From: Candidatus Taenariivivens baikalensis
GTDB lineage: Bacteria; Omnitrophota; Omnitrophia; Omnitrophales; Aquincolibacteriaceae
DNA: 64,000 nt
NCBI GenBank assembly: GCA_009691445.1
Contig: SICL01000003.1
Coordinates: forward strand, 25,834 to 89,833
Direction: 5' to 3'
Shown here piece after piece: positions 4,801-43,106 of the stretch; the first letter of the stretch is position 1, and every line of letters starts with the position of its first letter. The position numbers and the translations under genes were made by a program. The notes beneath the pieces are model-generated. The model did not search any database, had not been told where the DNA came from, and was given only the letters and a program-made list of their open reading frames with translations.

Positions 4801-5295
4801 CACAAACTGCTGGAACTGCAGGACGAAGGCCACGCCTGCGTGGTTTTTTCACAATTCACGCGTTTTCTCAACCTCGCGGAAGAAGCACTCAAGAATGCTA
4901 AACTAGACTTCATAAGGATGGACGGAAAAACTCCCATTCCAAAACGGAAATTCCTTGTTGAGAATTTTCAAAATCCAGAAGGACCTCCCATTTTTCTGGT
5001 CAGCCTTAAAACCGGAGGCGTCGGACTCAATCTAACCCGGGCAAGTTATGTCCTTCATCTGGATCCCTGGTGGAATCCCGCCGTGGATCAGCAGGCCTCT
5101 GACAGGGTGCACCGGATTGGACAGACGCAGACCGTCTTCATTCACCGGATCTTGATGCGCCACACCATTGAAGAAAAAATGATGAGCCTTCGCCAAAGTA
5201 AACTCGAACTCTTCAAAAGCATTTTGGATGAACAGTCCAGCACGGGACCCGATCTAAAAATTACTAAAGCGGATTTTGACTTTCTCCTTACTTAA
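1816..5295 (+). CDS. SNF2-family helicase with N-terminal SWIM zinc finger
   Basis: SWIM-like CxC...CxH (CSCPAWNNGTNCKHVACALL); SNF2 ATPase motifs DDMGLGKT (Walker A), DEAQWIKN (DEAQ box), C-terminal helicase domain (LVSLKTGGVGLNLT, HRIGQTQ). Confidence 0.85.
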   Translation: MHPSSLTPMDLSLLNNDIPPLLQMISSFSETEISRLTGGVSFRKGWDYLQTKRLEDFFWGEESISLCAKIRGTNLYQVTLTQNQKKDKIKGHCSCPAWNNGTNCKHVACALLGILQLIKPNFNQGNINLDYLEKMRVKIMSFPTPAATTQSGSPPLESQTKGLAIYLKKNQAGELTAECKKNNRRVNALRLENTHDFNSPYHQEASSTEATELALFDFLHQAQKDPFELYVETDQGVLRATWDPHLQIETELSLHLISEQNMEIRCVPSKDSKPLQNFYQLGRCLCLDSESGNLHFAEDLSALSYFYELKMKIKKDSFPDSDILDPKPQFQPIESIKLFTWEWNDLGIILSPNLFKKTTFYTQDIRQAPESQAPEFRLEIEQDVRSQNSYTVQTEWQINGKPLVAKYHPIRDLVKMVINHPELSSMYQSDRNRVYQAFLEFLNLPSPEEQTLFQTNFLNSLSFRYYERKEARTLFKILNDWRDPNLNPRQPLIKEGAWQIIEYDILRAFRLLGTTGFVLNHLPSLALLEKEERISVSAKKVLSILLDLKKSVEDLGGSLYWKKKEILVSSLEVSIDASVSNQDWFEIRPEIKLNGEPLNEKDWQNILDSTFLENQSGIHILDSNALAILTRLKKSLTSKPGTLNSREFIPIPRLEIFDLFSLRKLGARVRFSENDERILTNLMHLESIPPREIPAAFQGELRDYQKRGYDWLCFLYEHRFGACLADDMGLGKTVQALTLLAGLKEQKLRSPFPNSKTPHLIVVPPSLVFNWENEIRKFYPDLRVKLYTQPAANLSFSDCDIVLGTYDRVRLDIEVLKKIRFHVILFDEAQWIKNIFAARTSAVRQLKGNFKICLTGTPLENHVGEYYSVMDLCLPGLLGNPREFRSLAQEQNRALFLDRTRPFVLRRLKQTILKELPPKIETEVYLDLSEEQKQLYHKMVNEVRNEIAKAYSKKTESQARIIALTAILRLRQICVSSRLLNPDSKELSPKLEFMTHKLLELQDEGHACVVFSQFTRFLNLAEEALKNAKLDFIRMDGKTPIPKRKFLVENFQNPEGPPIFLVSLKTGGVGLNLTRASYVLHLDPWWNPAVDQQASDRVHRIGQTQTVFIHRILMRHTIEEKMMSLRQSKLELFKSILDEQSSTGPDLKITKADFDFLLT

Positions 5296-6180: not shown

Positions 6181-9100
6181 GTGACCTCCGTTCCGAAAAA
6201 AATGATGAAAAATCTTCCTAAAAAATCAGTCGCCCTGATCACGGGAATTGCCTTTGCCGTCACCAGCTTTGTCGCTCCCGCGTCTTATGCCGCACCCGTT
6301 CGCTTGACGGTACCGGGTACCGCCGCACCGAGTACTGCGCCGATGCCCAAAGAGTTTGGAGAAATTGTCTCGGAATATCACACCCAGGGAAATCAGACTT
6401 CTGTCTTTCTTATCCAGGATGCTCACGCAATACCAGAAGCACAAAAAAACATTCAAAAAATTATTCGTTTTCTGGCAGACAACTACGGCGTTCAAACCGT
6501 CGGCGTTGAAGGTGCTTCCAAAGAACTCGATACACAAATTTTTAAAAGTTTCCCGGATGCAAAGCGCTTGCAGGAAGTCTTTGATGATTATATGGAAAAA
6601 GGGGAACTCACGGGAGCGGCGGCGGCTGCGATTTTTAGGCAAGGAGCAGAGAGCAAGGAGCAAGGAGTCAAACCCCATGCCCCAAGCACCATGCTCCATG
6701 CTAAGTTTTATGGCTTAGAAGACCAACCCCTCTACGAAGAAGGCCTGAAGCTTTATCAGGAAGCGGCAGGGAAAGAGGCCGACCTCAAGACGAAGTTGGA
6801 AGTTAGAAGTAAGAAGTTAGAAGAAGAGAAGACGAAAGCGTATTCCAAAGCATTACTTGCGATTGATGAAGTCTTGGGTGCTTTCAATGAAAATCACGCA
6901 AATCTGACGGATGTCCTCTTTCTTCTCTCCAAAATCCGCAAACCGGAAAAGGGAAGTGAACTCCGGGCCATTCTGGATGAAATGAAACTTGAGAAGTCGG
7001 ACCGGACTTCGAGTGTGATCCAGGTGAGACGGCTTGCAAAAGAAGTGGAATGCGAAATGACGCAAAGTGCAAAGCGCATAGCGCATAGTGAAAAAAATTC
7101 AGAAAAACGCTTTGCCCTTAGCGCTATGCTCTATGCCGACTTCCACGCTAAACTCCAGCAATTCAACACTTCCCAGCTCACGCCTCAAGCATTTGCGTTT
7201 TATCTCAAAGAAGTGATCACGGAAAACAAGTTACCCCTGAAAGTATCCGATCATCTGCTCGGATTAGTCCGCCATCAAAAAACAGTTCAGGAAATTCAGG
7301 GAACAAAGCTGTTCAAAGATCTTGAAACCTACGCAGCGGCCATCAAAGAATCCCTTTTTGAAAATGCCGGACAGCGGGACCTCGATCGCAAGACGCATCA
7401 GCTTCAGCTGCTCACCAAACTCACAAAGCTTGAGCTCGCGAGGGAAGAGTGGGAAGAAGTAAAAAGGTTAGAAGTCGGAGGTTGGAAGTTGGAAGGAAAA
7501 TCGTCTTCACTTCAAACTCCTCATCTGTCTTTCTACCGCAACGCCGAAGCCCGGGAACGAGCCTTCCTGACGAAGTTAGACGTTAGAAGTTCGAAGTTAG
7601 AAGAGAAAAACCGCAGAGGCTCGTTACTTCCATCCTCCAACTTCAAACTTCAAACTTCTATCGTGGTCGCTGGCGGCTTCCACACCCAGGGCCTGGCCCA
7701 CAATCTCAAAGCCCGTGGAATTTCCTATCAAGTCATTATGCCGCGTATCCAGTCGCTTCCTGAACAGTCTTCTTACCGGGAGCAGATGAAAGGGAATGTT
7801 TCGTGGTCTTCTTATATGAAAGCAAAAGATGGACGGGTTAATTTGTATGAAGCTTTTACACGCGCTACGCGCGATAAACTCTTGAAGTTAGACGTTAGAA
7901 GTTTGAAGTTAGAAGAAAAAGAAGGAAATCAACCTGTCCAACTTCCGACCTCTAACTTGCAACTTCTTAAGCCTTGGCGAGACCAAATCCTAATCGACCT
8001 CGCTCAAACCGAACAGCTCGACAAGGCCGGAGAGTACACGCGGTTCATTGACGAAATCAGCAGAGAGCATAGTGCAGACCTGCCCGCCGAAGCGAAGCGG
8101 CAGGCGGGGAGCAGAGGGTCTGACTCTATGCCCTATGCCCTTAGCTCTATGCATCAGAAGTGGCAAGCCGCCGTTAAAAAATTTACCGATGGAATAATCC
8201 GCCTTGAATCCCAGGGCCGGTACACGCCGGATAATATCGTTCGCCTTCTTCAGCCTGCGACGATTCTTCCTGAAACGGGATTGGGACAATTTAATCCCGG
8301 ACAAACCTTTCCAGTATTTAGAGAAGGTCCGATGAGCGCGGAAGGGTTAACGGGTAAGCCGGTGCGCGGGTTCACGGGTACGAGCGCTCGCATACCCGCA
8401 TACACGCGTACCCGCACACGACAACCTCGCTCCGAAGCAAGAAATAATCTGCAATTAGGAGGGCCAAATGGAACGATTCGGTGGGTAGACATGAAATGGG
8501 GAAGCCAGCAGCTTCAACTTTCAGAAGCCATTCAATCTATGAATGATCCTGACATAAGCATAGCTCAAACCATAAAGGCCATAAAAGATTTTTATCTTGC
8601 GATTCAAGAAAGCGGAGAGGACGGGATGTATGATAGCATCGACAAACAGGATATCCTGACTGGGAACCTGCCTAACTTTTTACGCGCCTTGGGGATGCCC
8701 AAAAGCGACTCCGGAGAATCATTAACAGAAGCAGAAGCTCAATTTTCTTTTAATTATTTAAAAGAGCGATTCCATGATTTAGAATCTTTGAACGTTTCGT
8801 TTACAGGTTTGAATAATCCCTCTCTCAAGATCGAAATCTACTGGTGGATTTTTGTGCTTCTGTTAGTGGCTGATCACAACACGGCATCAGCGTCATCCGC
8901 CGACATTCAGGCTCTTTCAGAGACTGAAGAACTTTTGGCTCTGCTGATCTGTGCTATTTCCAGCGATCATGTGAGAGGACAAATTTCACAAAATCCCAAG
9001 GATTTGATTGAATCAAGATTGCTGGACTTGACCCGTACACAGCCTTTGCTTGGAAAATCCATTTCGAAAATCATGCGGCATTGGGATCCTTGGATTTCTG

Positions 9101-12100
9101 AAGGACAACGGATATGGATGGAGGCGGTGCATGCGGTCGGAGATGCCCAAGATGGGCAAGACTTTGAGCTGAAACCGGATCGTGCTGTTTCCGAGGCCTC
9201 GAAAGCCAAAAGATTATTTGATAAACTCACCGAATTAACCAATGTGTTAAAACCCAGTAACTCGGAAGAACTACGCCATTGGAATGAGCCTCTTACCACA
9301 GCCGTTGAAATAGCCTCTCAAGCGGAGACCGTTTTATTTGACGGTGCTCGTGCGGCTTTTTTGGGGGCAAAACAACCCGGATCTGATTTCTCCTGGGGAA
9401 CGGATTTTCAATTTTCGTGGCTGGAAGAAATGGCCCGGAAGGGTTGGAAACAAATCGCGTTTGTTGTAGATGATACCTACACCAAGGATTTGATCACTTT
9501 TTTTCCTTCTGAAGATCAAATCTCCGGCGATCAAATGGTTCTGAGTTTGGAAAAATACCTACATCTTCCTCAAGAAGCAACTCTGCGTGATTATTTACAT
9601 CTGCCCAAGGAGCATGAAAATCCAAGAGTGACTCGCGCGATTCAGTTTTGGCAAAGAATGAGAAGCCTTGTTCAGAAGCAAAACCTAAAAATTCATTTGA
9701 TTGTTTATCAACCTTTTGAAACGCACGAGCAAAACGAATGGCTTGAAAAAACTCCGGGTAAAAAGATTTTGTGGGATTCTTTGTTGGTTATGAGGCCTTA
9801 CAAAACAACCGGCATGGTTTCTATTGCGCAGTTTCTGACAAGAAATCAATACGAACAAGAAACCTTCAATCCGCCACTCGCCGTATCTTATGCGGCGCAT
9901 CAAGCCGCGATGGATCAGGGATGGGGGGAGTATCACTCAGTCGGATTCAAATTATCTAAACGCTTGGAAAATTTTATGCTTGCACAGCCTTTGATAAAAA
10001 CACCTCGTTCCATTTCTCTTGCGCGCCTGGACAGTGTGGATTTTTCAATTTATACAGGATCGGATGACGGAAAATTAGACGAGATGGAAATAGGTCTTCC
10101 CGAAGCTCCGGAAAAAGTCCCTGGTCCGAATGTTTTAGAACCCACCACCCGCTCCGAAGTGCGGGGCGGAGAAGGTGATTGGAGAACACGAGGTACGCCC
10201 ATCCAAGATTTTTCACGGCAAAAAATGGAAAAAAATGCTTATGAAGAGCTGGATGTTCCACGGAATGCAAGTGAGGATGAAATCAAAAGGGCATTTCGAA
10301 AACTAGCCGTTATCCATCACCCGGATAAAAATCCAAGTGACCGCCAAGGAGCGGAAGTGAAATTTAAGCGTTTAGGGGTTGCCTATGAACTTTTAATGGA
10401 CCCAGACCAGCGACGAGTCTATGATCAATTGCTTGATTCCAACTCGGCTCCGCGACCAAGCTCTTCCACGTTTACTGGTTACAAAGACCGGGCAGAAGTG
10501 CCTAACCGTGTCATGAGCTACGACGATATTGACAGGCACATCGACGAGATTCCCAAAGCACACCGGCCCAGCATCGGCTTTAACCTCGAAAGAGATCCAC
10601 AAGGGGGAGCCGTTTTGAACATTATCACAGAATACACGAAACAGTTGTGGAAGCAGGAAACGAACATTTTAGATTTTACTGCGCATAAAAATGAAGTTTT
10701 TATACTCCATCCTCGCTCCGCAAAGATAGCGGATAAACACGAGATTCATTGGTTTAATGGCTTTGGCTATTATCTTGTTTTATCCGAAGACGATCTCATT
10801 AAGTCATTTCCTGTCGTAGCTAAACGATTTGGATTTAAAAAGGAAATTAAAAACGATCCGCGCTTCATGACGCGGGTGGATATCTTCAATCAACTAAACA
10901 TGGATGAAAGTTGGAGTAAGCGAGGCAATTCCAAGCCTACGCTTCCAGGGATTAAAGCGTTAGTGGTTGGAAACCCGGGGAAAGATTTTTTGTGGATCTA
11001 TACGGAAATTTCGGCTGACCCTGTGGGAATCAATAACATTGTTGGCTTTTCACGTGAGCAGCACAACTTTTTTGTTCTTCATCACGATACGCCGGAAAGT
11101 CCTGAACCTATGATCTCAAGGTTTGATTCCGAAGGCCGGTTTGAACCCACTGTTTCCAGCGAGACGGTCTGGCCTGATTTTCCGGAGACAGCTTTGGAGT
11201 TCAAATTACCTCCGGTCAAAATAAAAATGAACGCCGAAGGACCGGCGATGAGAAGGGGGGAAATCATACTCCGGAATCAGGATTTATTGCAAGCTGCTAC
11301 GGCGGCCAGAATGAAGCTTGGGCCTCATCTCCCTCTAAATCCCGGGGATTTGGAAGTTGACACCAGGGAGAGAGAGCAGTGGTTCAGACGTAAACTTACC
11401 GGCGTTACGGCTTATACCATTTTTCAGAACCATTTTTTTGGGGTCAAACGCCGCGAGGGAGAGGATATCACAATTGCGCGGATTTCTGGCGATAACCCCG
11501 GAGCCGCTCAGCTCCTTAGCCGGAAAGAGCTCCTCGATCAATATCCGATTGTTGCGGCAGAATTCTCCCTCCGCTCCGAGGTGAGGGAAAAAGAGGTAGC
11601 GGGTTTGCGGGTAACTCGGTTAACGGGGGAACAGCCCGCCCCCGCCACTCAATCTTTGGCGGACAAGCGCACACAGGCTCACTCGCTCACCGGCACACCC
11701 GATTCCTCCCGTTCCGAAGTGAGGGGAGTCAGTAGCCGATCATTCTTGAAGACATTGGCCGTAGCTGCAAGCGCAATAGCTTTCCACCCACTCACCGCTT
11801 CAAGTCAGATGAATCCAGAAAATCAAACCATCAGCAAAATGCGCGATCTTTTTATTCCGGGCCGAGGAATTGATCGGACCACAGGGTATCCGCTTGATGT
11901 TGTGATCGGATCTGAAGGATGGAAAACAACTCAGCCCACGAGCATTGGTTTCCGGGCCGAAGAGCTGGCCTTATCCGCATCGAATAGGCTTCCCGTAAAA
12001 ACCGGCGGCGCCGCAACCGCGCAAGCCGAGGATCTTCAAACTCTCACAGAATTATTAACCCGGCTCCAAGGGGATCAAAAGTCGTCGCTTGCCTGGAAAG

Positions 12101-15100
12101 GTTTAATTCCCTGGTTCAAACTCACGAGCGAAGGGGCTGCCGCTGACCGAGATGAAATTGCCTACGTCGATAATGCCAATCTGTCAGGCAGTTTAATGGT
12201 CGTGATTGGGGCTTTACTTGAGGCAAAAAGAGCAAAGCCCCAACCATCCAAGGCCTTCGATGCCGCCATTGAAAAGGCCCAACAGATTCTGGATGCACAA
12301 AAAAAAGGTTACGAAGCGCTCTTTAATCCGGCGCGTGGACTTTTCCGCGGCGGGATTAAAAAATCATCCGGAGACTGGATTCATCCTAATTATTATATCG
12401 ATCGATTATTTTCTGAACATGCCGGAAAAACCGCAGCCATTATCAGTTACTTTGGTTTCGATGAAGCCGGATATACCAACCTCGGCCCCGCATTTCGAAC
12501 CCATACTTTCCGCGATCAGTCCACGGGCGACATTGCAGCGACCTGGGACGGTGGCGTTTTTCAATTTATTTGGAACTTTCCTTTTGTTGGCGATTCCAAA
12601 CTTTGGAAAACCTTGGCAGAAAATCATTTAAAAGCAATTACGGATGAGGCTCATCAAAAAAATCTTGGCGGAGTATTGTCCGCTTCCTGGGATGGCGCTT
12701 CTTATAATGCCGGAATTGGTCATGCTTTCCGTGAAAATAGCAATCCCGTCATCAAAAATAATGTCGCCTCGCTTTACAGTCTGGATGGATATACCTCAAT
12801 CTCTGCAAAAACAGTCGCCGCTTGGCGCTCGGGAATCGTAACCCAAGTTCCAGAGTTGATGGGACCCTACGGAAATTTTGATTCAATGACCGAGGGTGTT
12901 GTGAATTCGGGCGTCTATGTTGCGGTCGATCATTTATCTTCCATTTTAGGATCGGCGGCAGAAGCAAGGGCCAGTGCTTTTCGAACGCTGATGAAACAAA
13001 AAGCGAACCGTTACGAAGGCTTTCTTCAATTAATTGAAAAACCTCTGCTTCACGCTCAAACCAGTCATCCCAACGCTTTTCAAAAACTTAACATTGATTA
13101 CGCGCCCGTTCCTCAGGTTAAAAAAAATAAGCGCAGCGTGAGCGATGTACAGATCGTGGATAAGGGAAAAGTGATTAAGGCGGATGAAAAGAATTCTAAA
13201 ATTTCTTACGCGGACATTCCGAATGGTTTTGGATTCACGTATGAAGCAGACGCAGGTGATTTTGCGGGAACCTTTGCCAGCTTGAATATGCAAAAACCCG
13301 CAGGAAAAAAGCTGTCGTGGAAATGGGAAAAAATTAAGAATTATCCGCTCTCACCCGTCGTGACAGTGAAACTTGAGTGGGGCGGCACGACAAAGTTTCA
13401 GCAAACATTGCAGGTAGATCTCTCAAACCCTCGCGCTGAAATTGAGCTACCTTCGGACACGCCATCCGGTTTTACCTTTGTTCTTGTCATTGATGCCTGG
13501 GATACCGCCAAGGGATTTCATAAAAGAAGACAGGCTCTCGGCGCCGCCAACTTTTCTCTCCGCTCCGAGGTGAGGGAAGACGAAGAGGCTATGGAGTTAC
13601 CAGACTCAGCAGGTTCGACGAAATCAATGGGTGAACTCAAGCATCCGAATATTCTGGCGACGTCTCGCGCACCTGACGCTCGTGCTGAGCTAAGAACCCA
13701 TGCACCCAAAGATCTTAAAATAGGGAAGCTTGATTTATCACTGTCGAGGAAATTTTTATCAAACGACTCCACTCTTGAGAGTTTTGCCAACGAGTTACTC
13801 AAGGCAAGCGTCCTGGCTCCCGACGACCAAAGAGTCCATGGAATAACAAGCACCTCACTGAGAGAATATGATCATTTAATCTCACTTGGTTTTTCTACGA
13901 ATACTTCAAAAGAGACCGCCGTTAAAAACGCCACGGACAATCAAAGATCGAAGATTCAGAGAGCTCTAACGCTCGCTAATATTTGGGATATTGCCTATGA
14001 TTCTAAGGCGCAACGCATCACGCTTACCTTGGATGGAGGGGAACTCCTTCTGTTTAATGCGCCTGGTGATAAAGAACTCGCGTTGCTATCTGCAAAATTC
14101 CGTCACCTGCTATCCAACTCTCAACCTTTAACCGCGAATACAGCGAAAAGGGCGGCTCTTTCTTCAGGACTTAATAGTTTTCTGACTTATCTTGATCACG
14201 GAACTATTTCACCCCTAGACGAACCCAGTGAGGTCACGGCTGATTTTTTTATTCCTAATCAAGCCGCAAAGCAAGCGATTCTTCATCATATGTCTCAAAC
14301 TTTTGGATCAGATATCGTGACCACGGGCAGGGAAGCCTTGGATCGTTGGCTCATGGATGAGGAATCCTATCAGCAGTCTTTAGCCCTTGCCGATGCAGCC
14401 CATACCAAGGCCCTGGCTGAGCAGACAATCTTGGATAAGCAAGCGGCCGTAGCTCGAGCCGCAGAGGAATTCCGCCAGGCTCAAGAAACGGAGGCCAAAA
14501 AACGGTTGCAAAAAATCCATCAAACAAGAATCAGACGAATCAAAATATCCGCCGCCATCGCGGGTGTCCTTGCGGCCTTCGTTGGGATTGTTCTTGCGGT
14601 GAATGCTTTCACCGCCCGCTACCAAAAAGCAAAAAACGAAACAAGACTAACTCATGCCGAAGATTCAAAGCAAAAAGAATTCAGAAAGCGAACCATGGCG
14701 ACTTTAGTCGCTGATTTCAGAAATAATTTTCCTCACCCGGAAAATTATGGGAGTTTTATTCAGCATCTCGCAGGTAAAAACAAGCTTAATCAAGCTTGGG
14801 ATCTTCCCGAGATTAATTCCTATGCTTTGATTAAGGATGTTTATGATTCCTTATCACGCATCGAGTACGAACCAAAAAGGAACAGCCTCACACCCGCACG
14901 ACGAGCAGTAGATCCTATATTTCTCGCTTTGATGGAACTGGAGACTCAACTGCCAACGGAAAAAGCGGGCGGTATTTCCAAGGTGATAGCGAACGCACGT
15001 CTTATCGAGAGCGAACAAAAAAATACTTTACTCCAGCATTTAGTAATTAATTCTCTAAATCTGGTCAACCAGTGGCACCAATTCCCAGAGACAGAACGCA

Positions 15101-18100
15101 TTAAAAAACTCAAGGACCTTCTCGTGGGTTATGAAGAATATGTCGCCGTGAAACTAAGTCCTGAGAGCGCCATGATTGCATTGAAACAATTAATTCCTCC
15201 TCACCTTTTCGGAAATACTCGTAAAATAATGGGCGCAAAGTTAATCGGTGCGATCATCCAGGAGACTCAGACTTGGGAACTTCTTACTCCATCCTTGAAT
15301 ACTGCGCTGATGTTCAATGCTGAGTTAATGATCGATTTTATGAAGGTGTCGCCCCCCAAACTCGATTCATGGACGCAACCGAATAAGAATCTGGACAAGA
15401 AAAAAGCAATAACGCTAGCGGATGCTCAATCGATGCTGGAATTGACCATAGAGGAACGACAAACAAATAGAACAACAGCCACTTTTATTATGAAAGAAGA
15501 TGGGATTTCCTTTACTGACATGATCGAAGCCGGATATAAAATTCTCGCCCAGGAAGATCCTCGAATTTCAAGAGACATAGTCTTCATTTCTCTCAATGGG
15601 AAAGTGTTTGCTAATGTTGCAGAATGCTTCGCCGTCCGAATGAAGGCAGGCGACAGGGCTCTCCTTACTTATCTCCGCTCAGAGGTGAGGACAAAGAAAA
15701 TTGTGGGACAGGATATTTCAACCCGGGTTAATCCATTACGTTCTGCAACAGTTCCCGCTGAACGGTTTCAACCCGCGTCAAAGTCCCACCAGGAACTTCG
15801 AAGACATGATCCGATTGCAAAGAGGTTAACGCCCCTAAAAAAACCGCAGGCGAAGGCGGGGCCCAATCTACCCCCAAATAATCGCTCCAAAGCGAGTATG
15901 AAACAGACGCCCGGAGAGCTGATCCAGCTCGCGAATGACTGGCTTGGGATGCATCTGTTAGTTTCCGAGCATGGAGTGACGTCCACGATTCACGTGGTTC
16001 TGGACTCGACGATCCAAAGGTCGACCGCGAGTCGAAAAGAGTATGATAATTCTATAGGGAACAACGTTGATTTTAATATTACTATCCGGGTGCCGACAGC
16101 CCAAATCACATCCGTGACAAAGCTTATAGCCCAGATTGATGGTGCCTTGAAAAGCAAGGGATTAGACGTCAGCACTCCCTCTCCCCACATTCCGGCAGAA
16201 GGAGAGATTTCCTGGTCTAGGAATCTGAAATCGGATATGAAATTTGACTTTGGACAAAATGCTTCTGATGAGGCGATTGGGGAAATGACGCAAAAGATTA
16301 ACAGGATTTTGAGGCGGCATCCCTTTGCCGGCTATAAGAATCTCTTTGCCGAACAGACACGCCATGAATTCTACGATAGTCATTTTGATGTGGAGATCTT
16401 GCCGGCCGGTGAACCTACTGTCGATCAGCCGAGAGGAGGGTATGTTGTGTATTCCTGGTGGAGTGGTATGCTCATTCAGGTGCGCGGGAACTTACTCACG
16501 GGTCCCAAGTGGAAGAAGAAGCTCGTGGAGGAAGTTATCAAACAATTTAGAAACTATGTGACCCGCTATAAAATGCGATTTTATGCACCAGCTTTAAAAA
16601 GAATTATACTCAAAGATCCGCCCTATCAAGGGCACTACTGGGGGGATCCTGACAGCGAACAGTGGAAGAGCTATCTAAGCAGTACGCAGGCACACGTAAA
16701 ACAAATTGAAGCCAAACTTAGAACGTTATTAAAGCCCCCCCCCGCAGTCAAGCGAGCTGAAGTGAGGACTCAAAACGATCTGGATCAGATGACCAATTAT
16801 CAAGATGTTGATATTTCGCAGATAGGCACGCACATCCGTGCGGAGCTGCGAAGTATCAATCTAAGCAATGCAGCAATGTCAACCCTCCGCCGAATGTTGA
16901 GTTTGACGGAAGCGGAACTGAACCCTCAAGGTTTGACAACGAGTAAGGTCTCAGCTATATATGTTTCTCCGGATGAGCGTGTTGCTATTGTGTTGCCGGG
17001 TATGTTGACGAGGGTGGAAGGTCAGACAGACCCACAACTTGTAAAAATCTTTCATTTAGTAGGCGCGGAAGAGGTCCAAAGTCATGGTGTACCGAGTAAT
17101 ATAAAGGATGTGTTGTTTCAAAATGGTGGCTTTACAGTCAGTTATTGGGATCCAACAAAAACGCCTGAAACCTTCCAAATTCTGGATCAAAAGCCGTGGG
17201 TTCAAAAAGTTGAAGACCGCTCCGAGGTGAGAAGTAAGAAGGCGACCGAGAGCACATTATCCGGAGGCCATACGAAAGTAGTTAAGCCACGCTTTGCGGC
17301 ATCGGCGAAAAAAAATGCTTCGGATTTTAATCTCCCCCCCGCTCAAAGGGAGCGCAATAAGAACTTGAAGAATGATTCGCCCCAGGACCGATCTGAGATT
17401 CGGAGAATTATTTCGGATGAGGTATTACGCGTGGTTTGGGCAGGAATGACAGGAGAGCCTGCAGAAAATGTTTCTTCCAAATCAGTTGGCCCTTTGACCA
17501 AAGTTTCCGCAAACGAGGCCGCTGAAATGATCATTGCGTTGAGTGAAACCTACTTCCAAAATCACGCGGCTGAAGTAACGGCATTCAGACAAACCGATCA
17601 AGTTTTAGCGGGCAGTGCTCAAAGGATTGCGGCGAAGATTGCGAGCCTCAAACAAACGGTTGTGATTCGCCAGACGCTTACAAATGAACAGCTGAAAGCA
17701 AGCGGTGATCCGCAGGCAGCCGTCCGTCAATGGATGAAAGCTGCCGGAAATTTAGCGGCATCCACCGATAAACTTTTGATTCACGTGACGCTTCCTGCCA
17801 ATTTCAGATTTAAAAATCTGGACTATAACCGGCTTGCCGGCTGGAAGGTCGTACCGACAGGGGACGGGGGATACGCGGTGGTTAATTCCACAGTGGATAC
17901 AAACGCCATTAACTTTAACAGCCTTATTCCCACACTAGTGATTTCTGATGAAGCGCTTGATCAAACCCAGGAAACACTCATTTCCGGCACCGACGCGCAT
18001 GGAAATAATCTGACACTGAAACCTGCTGATTTTGCCAATATTCTGACGGCGGGTGCCGGTTTTATTGCGGATAAACTTTCTTTGCGAAGCTGGATTGTTT

Positions 18101-18213
18101 CCAAAGGTTCGATTTCTTTCTTTGAAGATCAAAATGCCCTGGCTCATGCTGTTGATGCTGCACGTCTGATTCAAAGAGCTTTGGCTTCCAGAAGAACTGC
18201 GTACTCGGCGTAA
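6181..18213 (+). CDS. giant (4010 aa) secreted/membrane-associated multidomain protein with TraB/GumN/TIKI-like N-terminal region, embedded DnaJ J-domain and one internal TM helix
   Basis: uninterrupted 12 kb ORF; N-terminal signal-like peptide ([26 protein letters not shown]); [14 protein letters not shown]...VQTVGVEGA and later [19 protein letters not shown] resemble the GTxH...AGHL signature of the TraB/PrgY/GumN family; J-domain with HPD motif ([31 protein letters not shown]) at nt about 10234-10440; hydrophobic helix [22 protein letters not shown] at nt about 14540-14610; GTG start at 6181 (alternative ATG 6202). Confidence 0.75.
6640..6703. repeat. Family-B palindromic insert (agcaaggag.../...ctccatgct) in-frame inside the 4010-aa gene
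   Basis: agcaaggagcaaggag ... ccatgctccatgct is an imperfect inverted repeat; related copies at 7071-7137, 8061-8152 and 30586-30660. Confidence 0.6.
6790..6828. repeat. Family-C repeat (gaagttagaag iterations) in-frame in the giant gene
   Basis: gaagttggaagttagaagtaagaagttagaagaag; related to copies at 7466-7520, 7572-7659, 7884-7968. Confidence 0.6.
7071..7137. repeat. Family-B palindromic insert in-frame (gcgcatagcgcatag ... cttagcgctatgctctatgc)
   Basis: clear inverted repeat flanking about 30 nt; encodes ...FALSAMLYA... Confidence 0.65.
7466..7520. repeat. Family-C palindromic insert in-frame (ggttagaagtcggaggttggaagttggaag ... cttcacttcaaactcc)
   Basis: inverted repeat of the gaagtt/aacttc motif. 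Confidence 0.55.
7572..7659. repeat. Family-C palindromic insert in-frame (gaagttagacgttagaagttcgaagttagaag ... ccaacttcaaacttcaaacttc)
   Basis: long imperfect inverted repeat; arms encode [11 protein letters not shown] and NFKLQTS. Confidence 0.7.
7884..7968. repeat. Family-C palindromic insert in-frame (gaagttagacgttagaagtttgaagttagaag ... ccaacttccgacctctaacttgcaacttc)
   Basis: near-identical left arm to the copy at 7572; right arm inverted. Confidence 0.7.
8061..8152. repeat. Family-B palindromic insert in-frame (cagagagcatagtgcagacc ... ggtctgactctatgccctatgcccttagctctatgc)
   Basis: inverted repeat gcagacc/ggtctgac and gagcatag/ctctatgc; encodes ...MPYALSSMH... (compare MPSALSSML in the nuclease gene at 30586-30660). 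Confidence 0.7.
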
Positions 18214-18802: not shown

Positions 18803-18806
18803 AAAA

Positions 18807-18845
18807 GGGGACAGGTTTTAAAACCTGTCCCCTTTTGATTTTGTT
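18807..18845. terminator. bidirectional rho-independent terminator between convergent genes
   Basis: ggggacaggtttt aaaacctgtcccc perfect 13-bp stem flanked by A-run on one side and ttttgatttt on the other. Confidence 0.75.
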
Positions 18846-18853
18846 TTAAGTCT

Positions 18854-19810
18854 TTATGTGGTCGTTTCCTGAGTAGCGCTGGTCCCACTGTTTGAAGAAT
18901 CAGAATTCATAGTCCCGCCGCCTTGCTGCCCTTGCTGCTGATAATTTCCTTGCGGTGGCGGACGACGAGGACGCTTTTTCTTTTTATGAGGAGGCGGCAT
19001 CGTCCCGCCCTGGTCCTCACTTATCTCACTGCTGCTTTCAGAATCTGAACTTTCTGATTCTGAAATCGCTTCACTCGATTCCGTGGAGCTCCCAGACGAT
19101 GCGCTTTCCGTCATGCCTTCCTGCGACCCTTCCTGCATTCCTTCTTGAGAAGGAGGCATCATTCCCGATCCGTCGCCGCCTTGCATTCCTCCACCATTCA
19201 TTCCGCCACCGGGTCCCATTCCCATTTGCCCTTGGCCACCGCCATTTTGACCACCGTTCATTCCACCATTAGGCCCCCCCTGCATTCCGCCAGGACCACC
19301 GCCGTTCATACCTCCGCCTCCAGGACCACCACCGTTCATGCCTCCACCTGGGCCACCCATCCCGCGACCTCCGGGACCACCACCGTTCATACCTCCGCCA
19401 GGTCCACCCATTCCGCCACCGCCGCCAGGACCACCACCGTTCATACCTCCGCCTGGGCCGCCCATTCCGCCACCGCCACCAGGACCACCACCGTTCATGC
19501 CTCCGCCTGGGCCGCCCATTCCGCCACCGCCACCAGGACCACCACCGTTCATGCCGCCGCCTGGGCCGCCCATTCCGCCACCGCCTCCAGGACCACCGCC
19601 GTTCATGCCTCCGCCAGGTCCGCCCATCCCGCCACCGCCGCCGCCGCCTTGCATACCTGGACCACCGCCTCCGGGGCCGCCACCACCGCGCCGTTCACCG
19701 CCGCCGCCGCCGCCACCACCGGGCCCACCGCCGCCAGGTCGGGCTTCAAGCGAGGTGACAAAAACAAGATTGGAAATAATTGCGAGCGCAATCAGGGAAG
19801 GACGCTTCAA
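18854..19810 (-). CDS. secreted glycine-rich low-complexity protein with tandem 19-aa repeats (GGMGGPGGGMNGGGPGGGG) and acidic Ser/Glu tail
   Basis: signal peptide MKRPSLIALAIISNLVFVTSLEA; >=6 near-identical 57-nt tandem units; chosen over the plus-strand Pro-rich shadow ORFs because of the signal peptide and convergent terminator. Confidence 0.55.
   Translation of the reverse strand: MKRPSLIALAIISNLVFVTSLEARPGGGGPGGGGGGGGERRGGGGPGGGGPGMQGGGGGGGMGGPGGGMNGGGPGGGGGMGGPGGGMNGGGPGGGGGMGGPGGGMNGGGPGGGGGMGGPGGGMNGGGPGGGGGMGGPGGGMNGGGPGGRGMGGPGGGMNGGGPGGGGMNGGGPGGMQGGPNGGMNGGQNGGGQGQMGMGPGGGMNGGGMQGGDGSGMMPPSQEGMQEGSQEGMTESASSGSSTESSEAISESESSDSESSSEISEDQGGTMPPPHKKKKRPRRPPPQGNYQQQGQQGGGTMNSDSSNSGTSATQETTT
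19290..19640. repeat. 57-nt tandem repeat array (coding, inside the Gly-rich protein)
   Basis: ccgccaccgccaccaggaccaccaccgttcatgcctccgcctgggccgcccattccg repeated head-to-tail. Confidence 0.8.
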
Positions 19811-29518: not shown

Positions 29519-30736
29519 TTGCCTGTCATGGAATACGGCGTACTAAGTACTGTGGAAAATAAAAACGCCAGAACTCAACGTGGTACGCAGCGCGCAATAC
29601 TCAGTACTGGTTATAGTTCCTACGCCGAACTTCGTGACAAGGTTCGGAAAACCCTTCTCGAAGGCCAGCGTAAAATTGAACTCGCAAAGGTCCAGACTTA
29701 TTGGGATACCGGCAAACACATTAATGAGCACCTTCGGATTCATGAAGGGCGCACCGAGTACAAAAAGAAAACGCTGATCAGGCTGGGTAAAGATCTTGAT
29801 CTGGACGACAGTGTCCTTCGGCGGTGCGCAGAATTGAAGGAGGGATTCCCGGATTTACCAATTCGTGCCGGCTGGCACAAATCTGGTAATAATAGAATAA
29901 TCTCTATTAAAAAATATCCCTGGGCCTGCTTACACTGGAGTCATTTTCGGGCACTTCTTCCTCTTGAGGACCTGAAAACCCGCTACGAACTTGCCGATCA
30001 AGCCGCAGAAAAAGGCTGGATTGCCGAAGAGCTCGAAGCAAAGGTGAGGAAGATCAATGAAGATATCAGAGAAAAAAATGGCGGCGGGGGAAAACATCCC
30101 GTTCGTCCCTCGGAGCTGCTGACGCCCAAACTCGGTAAAACCGGCATTTATCAAATGATTCAGGACGGGGACTCGCTGACCGTGGATCTTGGGTTCACGT
30201 CTTACTGCAAACTTCCCAAGAATCAGGCAAGCAAATTCAAAGCCGGGGATTACTGCCTTTGGAAAGGCGACGCGCCGCCGAAAAAAATCCAGGGTGCGCC
30301 TTCCGATTTATTTACTTACGAAGCCGAAGTGCTGAAAGTCGTGGACGGGGATACGCTCTGGCTCAAGATCTGGCTCGCGGACGATCTGTGGCTGAAGGAA
30401 AAGGTACGGCTGCGCGGTATCAATTGTCCGGAGATGGATACGAGGGAAGGGAAGGATGCGAAAAAATTCGTGGAGTCCGTCATTGCGAGCAGTGCGAAGC
30501 AATCTCGCATCCTTATTGCTACGACGAAGCCCGACAAATACGATCGCTATCTAACGGATGTGTTTTTGCCAATCAGCATGGAGCAGAGAGCAAGGAGCAT
30601 AGAGAATAAATCTTTGAACTCCATGCCCTCTGCCCTAAGCTCTATGCTTTTTCTAAACAACGAACTCCTCAAGCACGGCTTGGCCGAGAAGAAAACCAAT
30701 TACTCGTTTAGCGATTGGGGAGATTTGGAACGCTGA
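29519..30736 (+). CDS. fusion protein: DUF1016 (YhcG-type) N-terminal domain + staphylococcal-nuclease-like (SNase/thermonuclease) C-terminal domain; carries two in-frame palindromic inserts
   Basis: N-term: LHWSHFRALLPLEDLKTRYELADQAAEKGWIAEELEAKV matches the DUF1016 N-domain consensus (LPWSHYR.LL...D...R.FY...A...GWS.R.LE.QI); C-term: VVDGDTLWL...VRLRGINCPE...GKDAKKFVE...YDRYLTDVF is the SNase fold pattern (GDT...RL.GIDaPE...G.eA......V......DrYGR.la.V). Confidence 0.7.
   Translation: MPVMEYGVLSTVENKNARTQRGTQRAILSTGYSSYAELRDKVRKTLLEGQRKIELAKVQTYWDTGKHINEHLRIHEGRTEYKKKTLIRLGKDLDLDDSVLRRCAELKEGFPDLPIRAGWHKSGNNRIISIKKYPWACLHWSHFRALLPLEDLKTRYELADQAAEKGWIAEELEAKVRKINEDIREKNGGGGKHPVRPSELLTPKLGKTGIYQMIQDGDSLTVDLGFTSYCKLPKNQASKFKAGDYCLWKGDAPPKKIQGAPSDLFTYEAEVLKVVDGDTLWLKIWLADDLWLKEKVRLRGINCPEMDTREGKDAKKFVESVIASSAKQSRILIATTKPDKYDRYLTDVFLPISMEQRARSIENKSLNSMPSALSSMLFLNNELLKHGLAEKKTNYSFSDWGDLER
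30479..30530. repeat. Family-R palindromic repeat in-frame inside the SNase domain
   Basis: gtcattgcgagcagtgcgaagcaatctcgcatccttattgctacgacgaag; encodes VIASSAKQSRILIATT. Confidence 0.75.
30586..30660. repeat. Family-B palindromic insert in-frame near the 3' end of the nuclease gene
   Basis: gagcagagagcaaggagcatagag ... ccatgccctctgccctaagctctatgc; same family as the three copies in the 4010-aa gene. Confidence 0.7.
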
Positions 30737-30737
30737 T

Positions 30738-31325
30738 TTATTCCAGATCCCGATGAAACCCGATTCGCCGTTTTGGTTTCTCCGGTTCCGGTGCCGGCTC
30801 AAGCAGCTGCTTCAAGGCATCAAAGACGACCTTAAACTGCAGGTCATACTTTTTCTCCATTGCCTCAATTTTCCGGCGCAGTTCTTTGTGCGCATCCAGC
30901 ATCTGTCTGATTTTCGTAAAGGTTCGCATGATTTGAATATTCACCTGAATCGCCCGTTTGCTTTTCAAAACACTTGAGAGCATGGAAACACCCTGTTCAG
31001 TAAAAGCGTAGGGAACTGCCCGTCTCAATCCTCCCCAACTTGAAGTCACAAATTGTGACTTCAAGTTGGTAAACTCTTCCGCGCTCAATTGAAACATGAA
31101 GTCCGAGGGAAACCTGTCCTGATTTCTTTTGACGGCTTGGATCAGTGCTTTTGGTTTCACCTGATAAAGATCAGCTAAATCGAGACTAAGCATGACCTTC
31201 TGATTCCGAAGAAAATAAATCTTTTGTCGAAGGGTTTCGTGGGAAATAGAAGCAGTATTTGAATCTCGAGTTTTCATTTTGGGCCTCCTGGAGTTGTTGG
31301 ATGTTTTACTTACTCCGAAAGCCAA
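30738..31325 (-). CDS. ORF6N-domain protein (KilA-N/antirepressor-like), copy 1
   Basis: KVMLSLDLADLYQV...QAVKRNQDRFPSDFMFQL...VTSSWGGLRRAVPYAFTEQGVSMLSSVLKSKRAIQVNIQIMR matches the ORF6N consensus. Confidence 0.8.
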   Translation of the reverse strand: MAFGVSKTSNNSRRPKMKTRDSNTASISHETLRQKIYFLRNQKVMLSLDLADLYQVKPKALIQAVKRNQDRFPSDFMFQLSAEEFTNLKSQFVTSSWGGLRRAVPYAFTEQGVSMLSSVLKSKRAIQVNIQIMRTFTKIRQMLDAHKELRRKIEAMEKKYDLQFKVVFDALKQLLEPAPEPEKPKRRIGFHRDLE

Positions 31326-40519: not shown

Positions 40520-40595
40520 ATGCTGCGTTTTTCATTTGATTTCCGTCTTTAGCAGGTTTAACCTGTCCCTCGAACGGGGACTGTCCCCTTACCTT
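40520..40595. repeat. Family-H hairpin repeat, copy 3 (short form), immediately upstream of the subtilase gene promoter region
   Basis: cgtttttcatttgatttccgtctttagcaggtttaacctgtccctcgaacggggactgtcccctt shares ttttcatttaatttc...ggtttac-ctgtccctcg-rcggggactgtcccctt with copies 1 and 2. Confidence 0.75.
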
Positions 40596-40739
40596 GGACC
40601 CTGCGAAACCGCGTTAACCATTGCCCAGGAGGGAATCCCCGCGGTCATTCCTATTGAAATGTGCTATTTGGGATGGCAGGAATCACTCCAGCAGTTGGCA
40701 AATCTTATTGAACCGGAAATTGCTGGGTAAAAAGGAGGT

Positions 40740-40928
40740 TTGAAAAAAATTATGAAATCGAAAGCACTTATTGTTTTGGCTTTTATGGTCGCGACCTTTT
40801 ATAGTTTAGAGATTGTTATCATGGTGTCGGGAAAGCAGTTTGGGGTGCCCCTCATTCTTAAGCTGATTATTGCGGCCCTGTGTTTTTCTTACGGAATTAA
40901 AAATAGTCGGAGAGATGGGGATAAATAA
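40740..40928 (+). CDS. hypothetical small membrane protein (two hydrophobic helices)
   Basis: ALIVLAFMVATFYSLEIVIMV and LILKLIIAALCFSYGI; weak support. Confidence 0.3.
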   Translation: MKKIMKSKALIVLAFMVATFYSLEIVIMVSGKQFGVPLILKLIIAALCFSYGIKNSRRDGDK

Positions 40929-40974
40929 TGCAGTAGAGAAGGCAGTCGGCAGGAGGCAGGAGCGGTAAACCCCA

Positions 40975-41181
40975 GGTGACAGTCACCCAAACAGGGGACA
41001 GAGGAAAATTACTACGCTATTAGCGTAGTAGCTCCAAAACTTGCACCAATGGTGCAAGAAATAGGGAACTTAAATCTCCAACCATTGGTTGAAGATATCT
41101 AAAACGGGTCTTAAGGTCAAAAAAACTCTCGCCATGGGTGAGAGAAATGGGGCCAGAGTTTCTACACACGGTGTGTGCAGA
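40975..41181. other. array of six different short perfect hairpins/palindromes (13-21 nt each) with semi-conserved linkers; candidate structured ncRNA or protein-binding array
   Basis: ggtgacagtcacc; actacgctattagcgtagt; cttgcaccaatggtgcaag; ctccaaccattggttgaag; ctctcgccatgggtgagag; tctacacacggtgtgtgcaga. Three are followed by agaaatRgRg, two by ctccaaaac/tctaaaac. No ORF >=60 aa in the region. Confidence 0.5.
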
Positions 41182-41224
41182 AATGAGAGTTAGGTAGAAA
41201 GAATGCTATCAGTAACGCTGCCTC

Positions 41225-41673
41225 TTGATTTTTCCTGACCAAGATCTTTCACTAGCATTAGCTAGCCCTTTATTTTTTCTGAAAAAGCTCTGGAAGTTTC
41301 GGCCTGTCTTTTCTATAATTCTCCTCACTAGACGTGGCGGACGCGTGAAACCGGAAGGTTTGACGCTCCGCCTTTTTTGTGTGGCCCGCCAAGCTTTCCT
41401 AAACGAACAATTTTATGTGCTGATCGATCTCAAAGCGGGAAGGTTGACGCATCAGGATTTTTTTAGATGCAAATGTATGTTAATTATTACGACCGTGAAA
41501 TCCTGGAAAAGGATGATGATCCGACGGTGGGTTTGATCTTGTACGAAGACAAGAAAGAGGCGGTGGTTCGTTACACGCTCTCCAAAGCTAACCGACAAAT
41601 TTTCGCGTCCCGCTATAAGCTCTATTTACCAACTGAAGAAACGCTCAAGCATCAGATAAGGGCTAGAGCTTAA
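41225..41673 (+). pseudogene. degraded DUF1016 (YhcG-type PDDEXK nuclease) C-terminal fragment, frameshifted
   Basis: two ORFs in different frames (41225..41536 frame 2; 41467..41673 frame 1) together spell ...FCVARQAFLNEQFYVLIDLKAGRL...//...YVNYYDREILEKDDDPTVGLILYEDKKEAVVRYTLSKANRQIFASRYKLYLPTEETLK, matching the DUF1016 C-terminal consensus (F.ArQ....d..FyiDLLfY.R.L..LVaiELK.g.F....GQm.fYl...D......enPtIGliLC..Kn..vveYaL......IgVa.Y.L...LP.el); the frame switch sits at a T7 homopolymer (gattttttt) about 41455; the N-terminal half is missing. Confidence 0.65.
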
Positions 41674-42889: not shown

Positions 42890-43106
42890 GTTACAGTCGT
42901 GCGTGCCATGATGACTCAACACCCACTCAATCGCCCCCGATGAAATCCTAGAAAATTAACTTAACCTGTGATGATGATATGAGTTATAATTCGCGCTCAC
43001 TCTTGGCATCATTCTTGAAGGATTAAGGCCGAGGGACAGGTCTACGAAAGCAAAACAGACCTTTCCCTGAGTTCTAAACGTTTTCATTAAAAGGAGCACG
43101 AACAAT

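Follow-up and report, generated by a model that had tools for sequence, protein, structure and literature searches.

The 64,000-nucleotide window analysed here, a stretch of contig SICL01000003.1 from Candidatus Taenariivivens baikalensis, carries an array of six short palindromes at positions 40975–41183 of the plus strand, which adjoins the decayed 3' end of a YhcG (DUF1016) nuclease gene and is probably the relic of the palindrome-unit segment of that gene. The four rightmost palindromes very likely belong to a class of units that lie in frame within DUF1016/YhcG genes. A reading of the array as not explained by any gene, proposed earlier from the sequence alone, is thus superseded, since the units correspond to the characteristic in-frame palindromes of this family and the adjoining pseudogene is a YhcG remnant. 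Different hairpins joined by semi-conserved linkers are the standard architecture of the DUF1016/YhcG family, met here in a decayed gene. The in-gene palindrome is conserved in about 98% of the sampled DUF1016/YhcG genes and is an apparently unreported nucleic-acid element; no description of it was found in the open-access papers searched for DUF1016, or for yhcG together with palindromes, and it appears to be new for the family.

The six palindromes, named H1 to H6 from left to right, were found by sequence inspection where the sequence-only reading had placed them. As extended they measure 13, 21, 19, 23, 19 and 25 nt, all are of odd length with a single central base, and none has more than one mismatch in a hairpin scan. 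H1 (40975–40987, plus strand; GGTGACAGTCACC, or GGTGAC-A-GTCACC), H2 (41010–41030, plus; TACTACGCTATTAGCGTAGTA, or TACTACGCTA-T-TAGCGTAGTA) and H3 (41040–41058, plus; CTTGCACCAATGGTGCAAG) are perfect, with arms of 6, 10 and 9 bp, respectively. The description of all six hairpins as perfect does not hold for the other three, each of which contains one mismatch: H4 (41074–41096, plus) forms 10 pairs with one C·A mismatch, H5 (41126–41144, plus) forms 7 pairs plus one G·T, and H6 (41159–41183, plus) forms 10 pairs with one A·C mismatch. The array was also thought to be free of open reading frames (ORFs), which is nearly correct, the sole overlap being a 49-aa minus-strand ORF at 41020–41169.

The clustering of these hairpins is non-random at the stricter thresholds. 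When at least 9 pairs and at most one mismatch are demanded, four hairpins fall within 220 nt, compared to a maximum of two in 100 Markov shuffles of the window, and when at least 7 pairs are demanded the cluster holds five, a number equalled in 2 of 100 shuffles. At the loosest threshold, 6 pairs, the cluster of six is non-significant (4 of 30 shuffles reach six). H3, H4 and H5 form a direct-repeat family, D1, with 61–74% identity and start-to-start spacings of 36 and 50 nt, and the pattern AAAWCT-N4-CCAWKGG-N4-AGAWAT has three matches (41036, 41072 and 41122) and none elsewhere in the 64 kb, the expected number being 0.07. The CCA-W-TGG core is common to H3–H5 only, and the arm sequences differ throughout (TTGCACCA in H3, TCCAACCA in H4, TCTCGCCA in H5 and CTACACAC in H6). 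Column comparison of H3, H4 and H5 revealed that arm positions 3/17, 4/16 and 5/15 vary on both sides together; the palindromes have therefore been maintained and are not accidental. The sequence agaaatRgRg, previously assigned to three of the hairpins, follows H3 and H5 exactly, H6 being followed by agaaatgagag instead.

The unit, a class defined in this analysis, has the form AAAWCT-arm-N-arm-AGAAAT and codes for K-L-x-P-x-V-x-E-I; across the family it is a near-perfect palindrome with an odd number of nucleotides, arms of 6–17 bp and one base at the centre. The window palindromes were compared with 514 kb of DUF1016 sequence (80 loci; here and below, retrieved loci of any kind are cited by L numbers), which had been gathered by protein similarity alone and hence independently of the unit pattern. 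Judged by these nucleotide matches, H3 and H5 read as clear copies of the unit and H4 and H6 as weaker ones. For H3 and H5 the top matches reach 23–26/33 and all fall at aligned residue ~100 or on a leader copy. Unit 3, which holds H3 (41036–41066, plus; AAAACTTGCACCAATGGTGCAAGAAATAGGG, coding K-L-A-P-M-V-Q-E-I-G), shares 26/33 positions with the in-gene unit of L134 and with that of L084, and its peptide KLAPMVQEI is paired in tblastn with KLAPLVREI of DUF1016 genes. Unit 5, which holds H5 (41122–41152, plus; AAAACTCTCGCCATGGGTGAGAGAAATGGGG, coding K-L-S-P-W-V-R-E-M-G), matches units of L134, L171, L161 and L130 at 24–26/33, in every case at residue ~100 of a DUF1016 gene or on the leader copy of L134, and its peptide KLSPWVREM is paired in tblastn with KLSPLVREI.

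Unit 4, which holds H4 (41072–41102, plus; AAATCTCCAACCATTGGTTGAAGATATCTAA), codes N-L-Q-P-L-V-E-D-I-stop in the same frame as unit 3; it matches the leader copy of L084 at 23/33, and its best match in independent loci, 21/33, is partly background. Unit 6, identical with H6 (41159–41183, plus), reads TTTCTACACAC-GGT-GTGTGCAGAAA followed by TGAGAG and codes LHTVCAEM in the frame of unit 5. It is "symmetrised", its left flank TTTCT being the reverse complement of AGAAA, and it matches a Clostridium unit in L128 at 23/33 and the units of L191, L198 and L187 at residue 100 at 20–21/33. The array thus contains two frames, one shared by H2 (NYYAISVVAPKLAPMVQEIGNLNLQPLVEDI and a stop), H3 and H4, and another shared by H5 and H6. 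Its peptides KLAPMVQEI, NLQPLVEDI with its stop, KLSPWVREM and LHTVCAEM are separated by stops and frameshifts, and the W-S-H continuation is absent. The linkers AAAACT... and ...AGAAAT derive from the K-L and E-I codons that flank the palindrome.

The adjacent nuclease gene is represented by a PD-(D/E)XK 3' remnant of YhcG/DUF1016 type (41408–41673, plus), identified with Pfam and a profile hidden Markov model (HMM), which starts 225 nt downstream of H6 on the same strand as the array. It consists of QFYVLIDLKAGRLTHQD at 41408–41458, a frameshift, and MQMYVNYYD... running to a stop at 41461–41673. The remnant matches Pfam YhcG_C with an E value of 7.5e-16 (profile positions 91–155 of 157), occupies positions 246–262 and 264–334 of 344 in the family profile HMM in two frames, and is 57–82% identical to metagenomic YhcG C-termini. 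The sequence-only reading placed the array between the subtilase promoter region and a nuclease pseudogene, which is borne out by the subtilase start (40521) on one side and the YhcG_C fragment (41467–41673) on the other. The window gene has lost its N-terminus and middle, leaving the unit array, about 210 nt of unrelated sequence that ends in a terminator, and the last ~90 codons of the nuclease domain. The strong terminator-like hairpin (41336–41378, plus; GGCGGACGCG...CGCTCCGCC and then T6), preceded by TATAAT at 41316–41321, sits exactly at the break between array and remnant, and by its sequence reads as foreign or filler DNA that is not YhcG-like. The succession of TATAAT, hairpin and T6 (41316–41378, plus) could represent a ~50-nt transcript or an orphan terminator.

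Other members of the family are also broken. In L090 (1960–2785), L097 (1743–2731) and L104 (1243–2254), frameshifts or deletions interrupt the gene near the catalytic E-x-K / GQMQMY region; their break points differ from one another and from that of the window remnant, and the nuclease domain seems to have been inactivated repeatedly. A set of 120 short YhcG_C matches was considered as a recurrent truncated form and rejected, most of them being contig-edge partials or frameshifted genes.

The in-gene position of the unit emerges from intact members of the family. A scan of IMG/VR with the window unit pattern gave four matches, one of them a perfect palindrome, CTCGCACCATTGGTGCGAG, which lies inside the phage YhcG gene of L084 (codons ...SEKLAPLVREISWS... 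/ ...SEKLAPLVREISW...) and recurs as an identical copy in the leader, 15 nt before the start codon. In a 69%-identical homologue (L086–L088), gene and leader likewise each carry a palindrome, but with another sequence, CTTTCACCACTGGTGAAAG. In intact genes the palindrome is in frame, in a stretch that codes for a loop just before the conserved L-S/T-W-S/T-H helix of DUF1016_N. A palindrome of at least 8 pairs is centred at aligned residue ~100 in 78/80 metagenomic DUF1016 genes, and the position histogram places 87 palindromes in bins 90–119, compared to a background of ~2–3 per bin. The same holds for 9/10 plasmid DUF1016 genes taken across the tblastn ranking, which are carried by Fusobacterium, Segatella, Acinetobacter, Granulicella, Citrobacter, Fulvitalea, Leptolyngbya, Clostridium and Pseudomonas and thus represent Fusobacteriota, Bacteroidota, Pseudomonadota, Acidobacteriota, Cyanobacteriota and Bacillota; a Nocardioides plasmid DUF1016 gene has no palindrome of at least 8 pairs at the site. 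The Omnitrophota-like genes nearest to the window remnant (L090, L097 and L104) carry perfect palindromes of 17–29 nt with other arms at this position of the alignment, where E. coli K-12 yhcG also bears a near-perfect palindrome. In one DUF1016 subfamily a second related unit follows the first at a distance of ~60 codons, within ...VLSPxKLSxxLRELHPD... (L148 1828–1854, L152 1933–1951, L161 1936–1954, L192 1954–1972 and L194 1597–1615).

Synonymous recoding of these genes yields 4.7±1.2 pairs, compared to an observed mean of 11.5, with 0.34% of the recoded sequences pairing as extensively as observed. The encoded peptide therefore does not explain the palindrome, and selection acts on the DNA. 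Pair positions 3–9 from the centre are 91–97% Watson-Crick, with 2–4 pair types each, and mismatches amount to 23/961 pairs (2.4%; five G·T, eight A·C and ten others), with no G·U or strand bias. Odd length is found in 82/85 of the family palindromes.

The units are also prone to multiply, both as in-frame tandem arrays of two or three with differing arms and as extra copies in leaders and 3' flanks. E. coli K-12 yhcG contains three different tandem units in frame (EIHQTMSGEL, GIPQTPSAEF and KIWQTLSAKS), and a fourth unit stands 16 nt past its stop codon; the four palindromes occupy 3368129–3368155, 3368164–3368198, 3368201–3368239 and 3368970–3368994 of NC_000913.3. Three units each are present in L174, L185, L190 and L162, and two each in L146, L153, L172, L186 and L204; in L190 GAAAT stands after every unit, as in the window linker. 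Extragenic unit pairs occur upstream in L150 and downstream in L164, and leader copies are located 10–30 nt before the ribosome-binding site or start codon in L084, L086, L121, L149/L151 and L167. A survey of 3952 E. coli genomes located the yhcG units at yhcG and nowhere else, in a median of 2 places each. Their number is polymorphic within the species, with one unit in strain CEC08123 and three in K-12.

The unit is furthermore a hotspot for deletion and truncation. Some E. coli yhcG alleles break off precisely where unit 3 ends on its right side, one of them also being without units 1–2, and in L089 and L131 gene homology begins at the palindrome, in L089 exactly there. In E. coli strains L65 and OkiPb01713 (L212 1015–1485 and L213 927–1397), a ~470-nt segment replaces part of yhcG from the right edge of unit 3 to ~25 nt beyond the 3' palindrome; a 101-aa ORF annotated as "transposase" in this segment has no Pfam match. 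Copies outside YhcG genes were found in L119 and L108/L109, and a further ectopic case is a 41-nt perfect palindrome, TGGTGCGAGAAATCGGCTGG, which has the same core and right flank and lies in frame within a small ORF unrelated to YhcG. There (L114 8391–8874, also L116), one of two small paralogous Cys-rich phage ORFs contains 45 nt more than the other, inserted in frame, and this insertion is the palindrome. Ectopic or truncating copies are symmetrised in L131, L114 and H6 of the window.

A second gene of the window helps to assign the palindrome to a domain. The intact gene at 29519–30736 encodes a DUF1016_N–SNase fusion, in which SNase takes the place of the usual PD-(D/E)XK domain and which has a single homologue in a search of 5.8 billion proteins. 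It still carries a palindrome (29861–29882, plus; ATTCGTGCC-GGCT-GGCACAAAT) at residue ~115, and the palindrome therefore goes with DUF1016_N and not with the type of nuclease. In a structure model of the product, the palindrome-coded stretch is a low-confidence loop just before helices resembling a helix-turn-helix (HTH), and the unit-coded loop tolerates insertions. The predicted fold of DUF1016_N resembles the DNA-binding domains of ParB, Spo0J, KorB and SopB; neither E. coli YhcG nor the family profile found a significant match among PDB sequences. The neighbouring minus-strand ORF6N-domain gene (30738–31325) contains a 35-nt perfect palindrome, CCAACTTGAAGTCACAAATTGTGACTTCAAGTTGG, at 31035–31069 (~residue 85–97), and is another case of a coding-sequence palindrome in a putative DNA-binding protein.

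These features can be accommodated if the units are double-stranded DNA sites for a dimeric, ParB/KorB-like HTH in DUF1016_N, a function that we favour over its rivals while holding it, on analogy, at slightly less than even confidence. Strict Watson-Crick pairing, odd length and fixed register would fit a double-stranded site of a symmetric dimer or a structure formed by both strands. Binding to the units would keep the nuclease tethered to its own locus or let it regulate itself there, in a manner comparable to parS, KorB operators and sopC repeats. The units could also extrude cruciforms, which would be substrates for the nuclease domain, which Kosinski et al. (PMC1189080) placed nearest to Holliday-junction resolvases. 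Cleavage of such four-way junctions could account both for breakpoints at unit edges and for symmetrised ectopic copies. A more sweeping and more doubtful proposal, also drawn from analogy, is that DUF1016_N nucleases throughout Bacteria are ParB-like site-specific binders whose cognate palindrome is hard-wired, in frame, in their own coding sequence and is sometimes repeated in the leader, the 3' flank or tandem arrays. At its own locus, the resolvase-like nuclease would be nucleated or held back by such a site, providing autoregulation, self-marking or cruciform cleavage, and unit arrays like that of the window would record nuclease-driven expansion and breakage. The window array itself is probably ordinary, a pseudogene relic that is non-functional since its cognate gene is dead. 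The earlier candidates of a decayed repeat array and of clustered operator sites both come near to what the evidence supports.

Several observations weigh against this account. H1 and H2 have no match of at least 20/33 to any DUF1016 unit in the 514 kb, and their membership in the unit family, which is based on position and form, is uncertain; by eye, the arms of H1 are like those of the L104 unit GTGACGCA-T-TGCGTCAC, and H2 and the Fusobacterium unit GCTACGCACTGCGTAGC both have CTACGC/GCGTAG. No YhcG-like coding sequence was detected by tblastn or the profile HMM at 41182–41400 or upstream of H1, and because no continuous coding alignment joins the array to the remnant, the link between them rests on adjacency, orientation and unit identity. 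The remnant is closest to L090, L097 and L104, which have units of the ILDAVRQEL type, and H3–H5 resemble the KLAPLVREI type. As for protein binding, strict Watson-Crick symmetry would also be expected of hairpin folding on both strands, and arms that differ within one array are awkward for a single binding protein.

Of the other explanations, the one that survives best, unlikely as we consider it, is that the units are selfish or structure-driven palindromic DNA (hairpins or cruciforms) and not protein-recognition sequences, the window array being a set of accumulated insertions. Such elements would spread locally, and sometimes to ectopic sites, when cruciforms are resolved or hairpin ends replicated, perhaps with the resolvase-like YhcG nuclease itself as catalyst, in a loose parallel to REP/RAYT or to the in-frame Rickettsia palindromic elements. 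The in-frame 41-nt palindrome in an ORF unrelated to YhcG (L114/L116), the other copies outside YhcG genes (L119 and L108/L109) and the symmetry of the ectopic or truncating copies (L131, L114 and H6) would all be expected of a selfish element, as would the polymorphic unit number and unit-edge breakpoints in E. coli. The published placement of the nuclease domain nearest to Holliday-junction resolvases (PMC1189080) and the low-confidence, insertion-tolerant nature of the unit-coded loop point in the same direction. However, genome-wide dispersal is lacking: E. coli has a median of 2 places, all at yhcG, and the window has a single site. Moreover, the native unit occupies one homologous position in 78/80 genes across phyla, which argues for an ancient resident feature. 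To our knowledge, no transposition mechanism has been described for proteins that combine PD-(D/E)XK and a ParB-like HTH.

A function of the hairpins as RNA is improbable, and was weighed in two versions: a plus-strand non-coding RNA or 3' untranslated region that extends from an ORF at 40753–40928 to the terminator at 41336–41378, or an mRNA hairpin that controls translation or stability in intact genes. The region 40930–41230 folds far better than its shuffles (z of -4.3 on the plus and -5.4 on the minus strand), an otherwise orphan plus-strand terminator lies 150 nt downstream, leader copies stand directly before ribosome-binding sites, and T-runs follow H5, H3 and H2 on the minus strand. 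However, G·U pairs make up 5/961 with no strand bias, unlike in typical structured RNAs, where G·U is freely used on one strand, and the mismatches within the window favour opposite strands, H4 and H6 giving G·U on the minus and H5 on the plus strand. Arm conservation is in register about a fixed centre, the nearest relatives lack the array, and the 58-aa ORF directly upstream of the array has no homologue. Rfam 15 at the gathering score returned no match in the whole window or in nine DUF1016 loci, and at E up to 10 the interval 40700–41500 gave chance-level matches only. The proposal of a multi-stem-loop non-coding RNA made in the sequence-only reading is accordingly not sustained, with no Rfam match, almost no G·U, no strand bias and no conservation in the nearest Omnitrophota. 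Strand inference from G·U versus C·A mismatches was itself discarded, as H4 and H6 indicate the minus strand and H5 the plus strand, and the family is unbiased.

Least probable is a stack of intrinsic, partly bidirectional terminators insulating the divergent subtilase/small-ORF unit from the toxin-antitoxin/dnaK side, which would agree with the minus-strand sequences (H5 then TTTTTTT, H3 then TTTT and H2 then ATTTT, H2 being called terminator-like by a scan), with the perfect A5-stem-T5 bidirectional shape of the L086 leader copy and with the E. coli 3' copy between convergent yhcG and nanQ, but no minus-strand gene ends upstream of the array, the regional count of 3 lies within chance (1.5±1.2 expected), and the coding-type flanks, the homology to in-gene units and the in-frame site in 78/80 genes are left unexplained. 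Overall, double-stranded DNA sites for DUF1016_N are favoured as the function of the units, selfish or structure-driven hairpins come next as an unlikely reading, and RNA hairpins follow as an improbable one.

The subtilase gene, which starts at 40521 on the minus strand, encodes 2539 aa. Synteny with relatives does not account for the array, and the subtilase N-terminus has no relatives among genome or metagenome contigs. Directly upstream of the array lies the orphan 58-aa ORF (40753–40928, plus), which has two hydrophobic/transmembrane segments and no homologue besides itself in a protein database search, and may not be a real gene. Downstream of the YhcG_C fragment are a HigB/HigA pair, YaiI and DnaK. 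The nearest Omnitrophota dnaK loci show no DNA similarity to the array region, and hairpins located upstream in the dnaK loci of relatives (L002 and L006) are unrelated to the array. The window dnaK is preceded by TGGCAT-N5-TTGA (~43005–43020), and TGGCAC-N5-TTGT is found in L002 (~4944–4958) and L006 (~1044–1058), which suggests a sigma-54-type promoter for dnaK in Omnitrophota. Elsewhere in the window, a 34-nt perfect palindrome, AAAAGGGGACAGGTTTTAAAACCTGTCCCCTTTT, at 18803–18836 between a 4010-aa ORF (6181–18213, plus) and a convergent ORF (18854–19810, minus) is shaped like a bidirectional terminator.

DUF1016/YhcG is a large uncharacterised family, common on plasmids, in phages and in restriction-modification/defence islands, and the palindrome offers a concrete way into its function that is testable directly in E. 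coli K-12. The units explain why yhcG varies in length and is truncated in some E. coli strains. The window array also carries a warning for genome scans, where different perfect hairpins beside a nuclease pseudogene can be coding relics and not RNA genes.

Compared with known systems, the array shares tandem short units, a hairpin-forming core and an adjoining nuclease gene with CRISPR and ToxI loci. However, CRISPR and ToxI repeats are near-identical and are transcribed and processed as RNA, while here the arms differ and the linkers are conserved coding remnants; CRISPR spacers, moreover, are unique and 25–40 nt long. The earlier rejection of a CRISPR array stands, with D1 repeats 61–74% identical at spacings of 36 and 50 nt, no Rfam CRISPR-DR match and no cas domains in the neighbours. 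A ToxI-type array was likewise excluded, given the differing arms and the absence of cas or toxN genes among the neighbours scanned.

REP/BIME elements and their RAYT genes resemble the present case in their clustered imperfect palindromes, conserved flanks and a cognate nuclease/transposase gene flanked by them. REPs, however, number hundreds of dispersed extragenic copies, and RAYT belongs to the Y1 HUH enzymes, whereas DUF1016 units belong to the gene and its flanks, with the native copy in the coding sequence. A REP-like dispersed element was ruled out by the copy distribution (one locus in 64 kb, and only yhcG in 3952 E. coli genomes). The Rickettsia palindromic elements (RPEs) reportedly are in-frame palindromic insertions in protein genes. 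They are alike in being palindromic DNA translated in frame as a tolerated surface or loop segment with strain-variable copy number, L114 being the ectopic case here, but RPEs are ~100–150 bp long and occur in many unrelated genes of one genus, whereas DUF1016 units measure 17–41 nt and are tied to DUF1016_N across phyla.

By analogy, the element would work most like the parS, OB and sopC sites. Short palindromes are the targets of ParB-family proteins; one parS is located within spo0J, and in sopC, the centromere of plasmid F, a 43-bp repeat stands in tandem 12 times, SopB binding the 16-bp inverted repeat that each copy contains. The copies in parS and sopC are near-identical, whereas the units of DUF1016 arrays differ in their arms. 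ParB has an N-terminal CTPase domain, whereas the DUF1016 proteins examined show only DUF1016_N and a nuclease domain in Pfam, and the ParA partner of parS/sopC systems has no counterpart among the ten ORFs scanned with Pfam between 30738 and 45041. Unlike in ParB, KorB and SopB, the partner domain of DUF1016_N is a nuclease, of PD-(D/E)XK or SNase type, and unlike parS, OB and sopC, the DUF1016 site keeps to a single place in the gene, in frame, in almost every family member.

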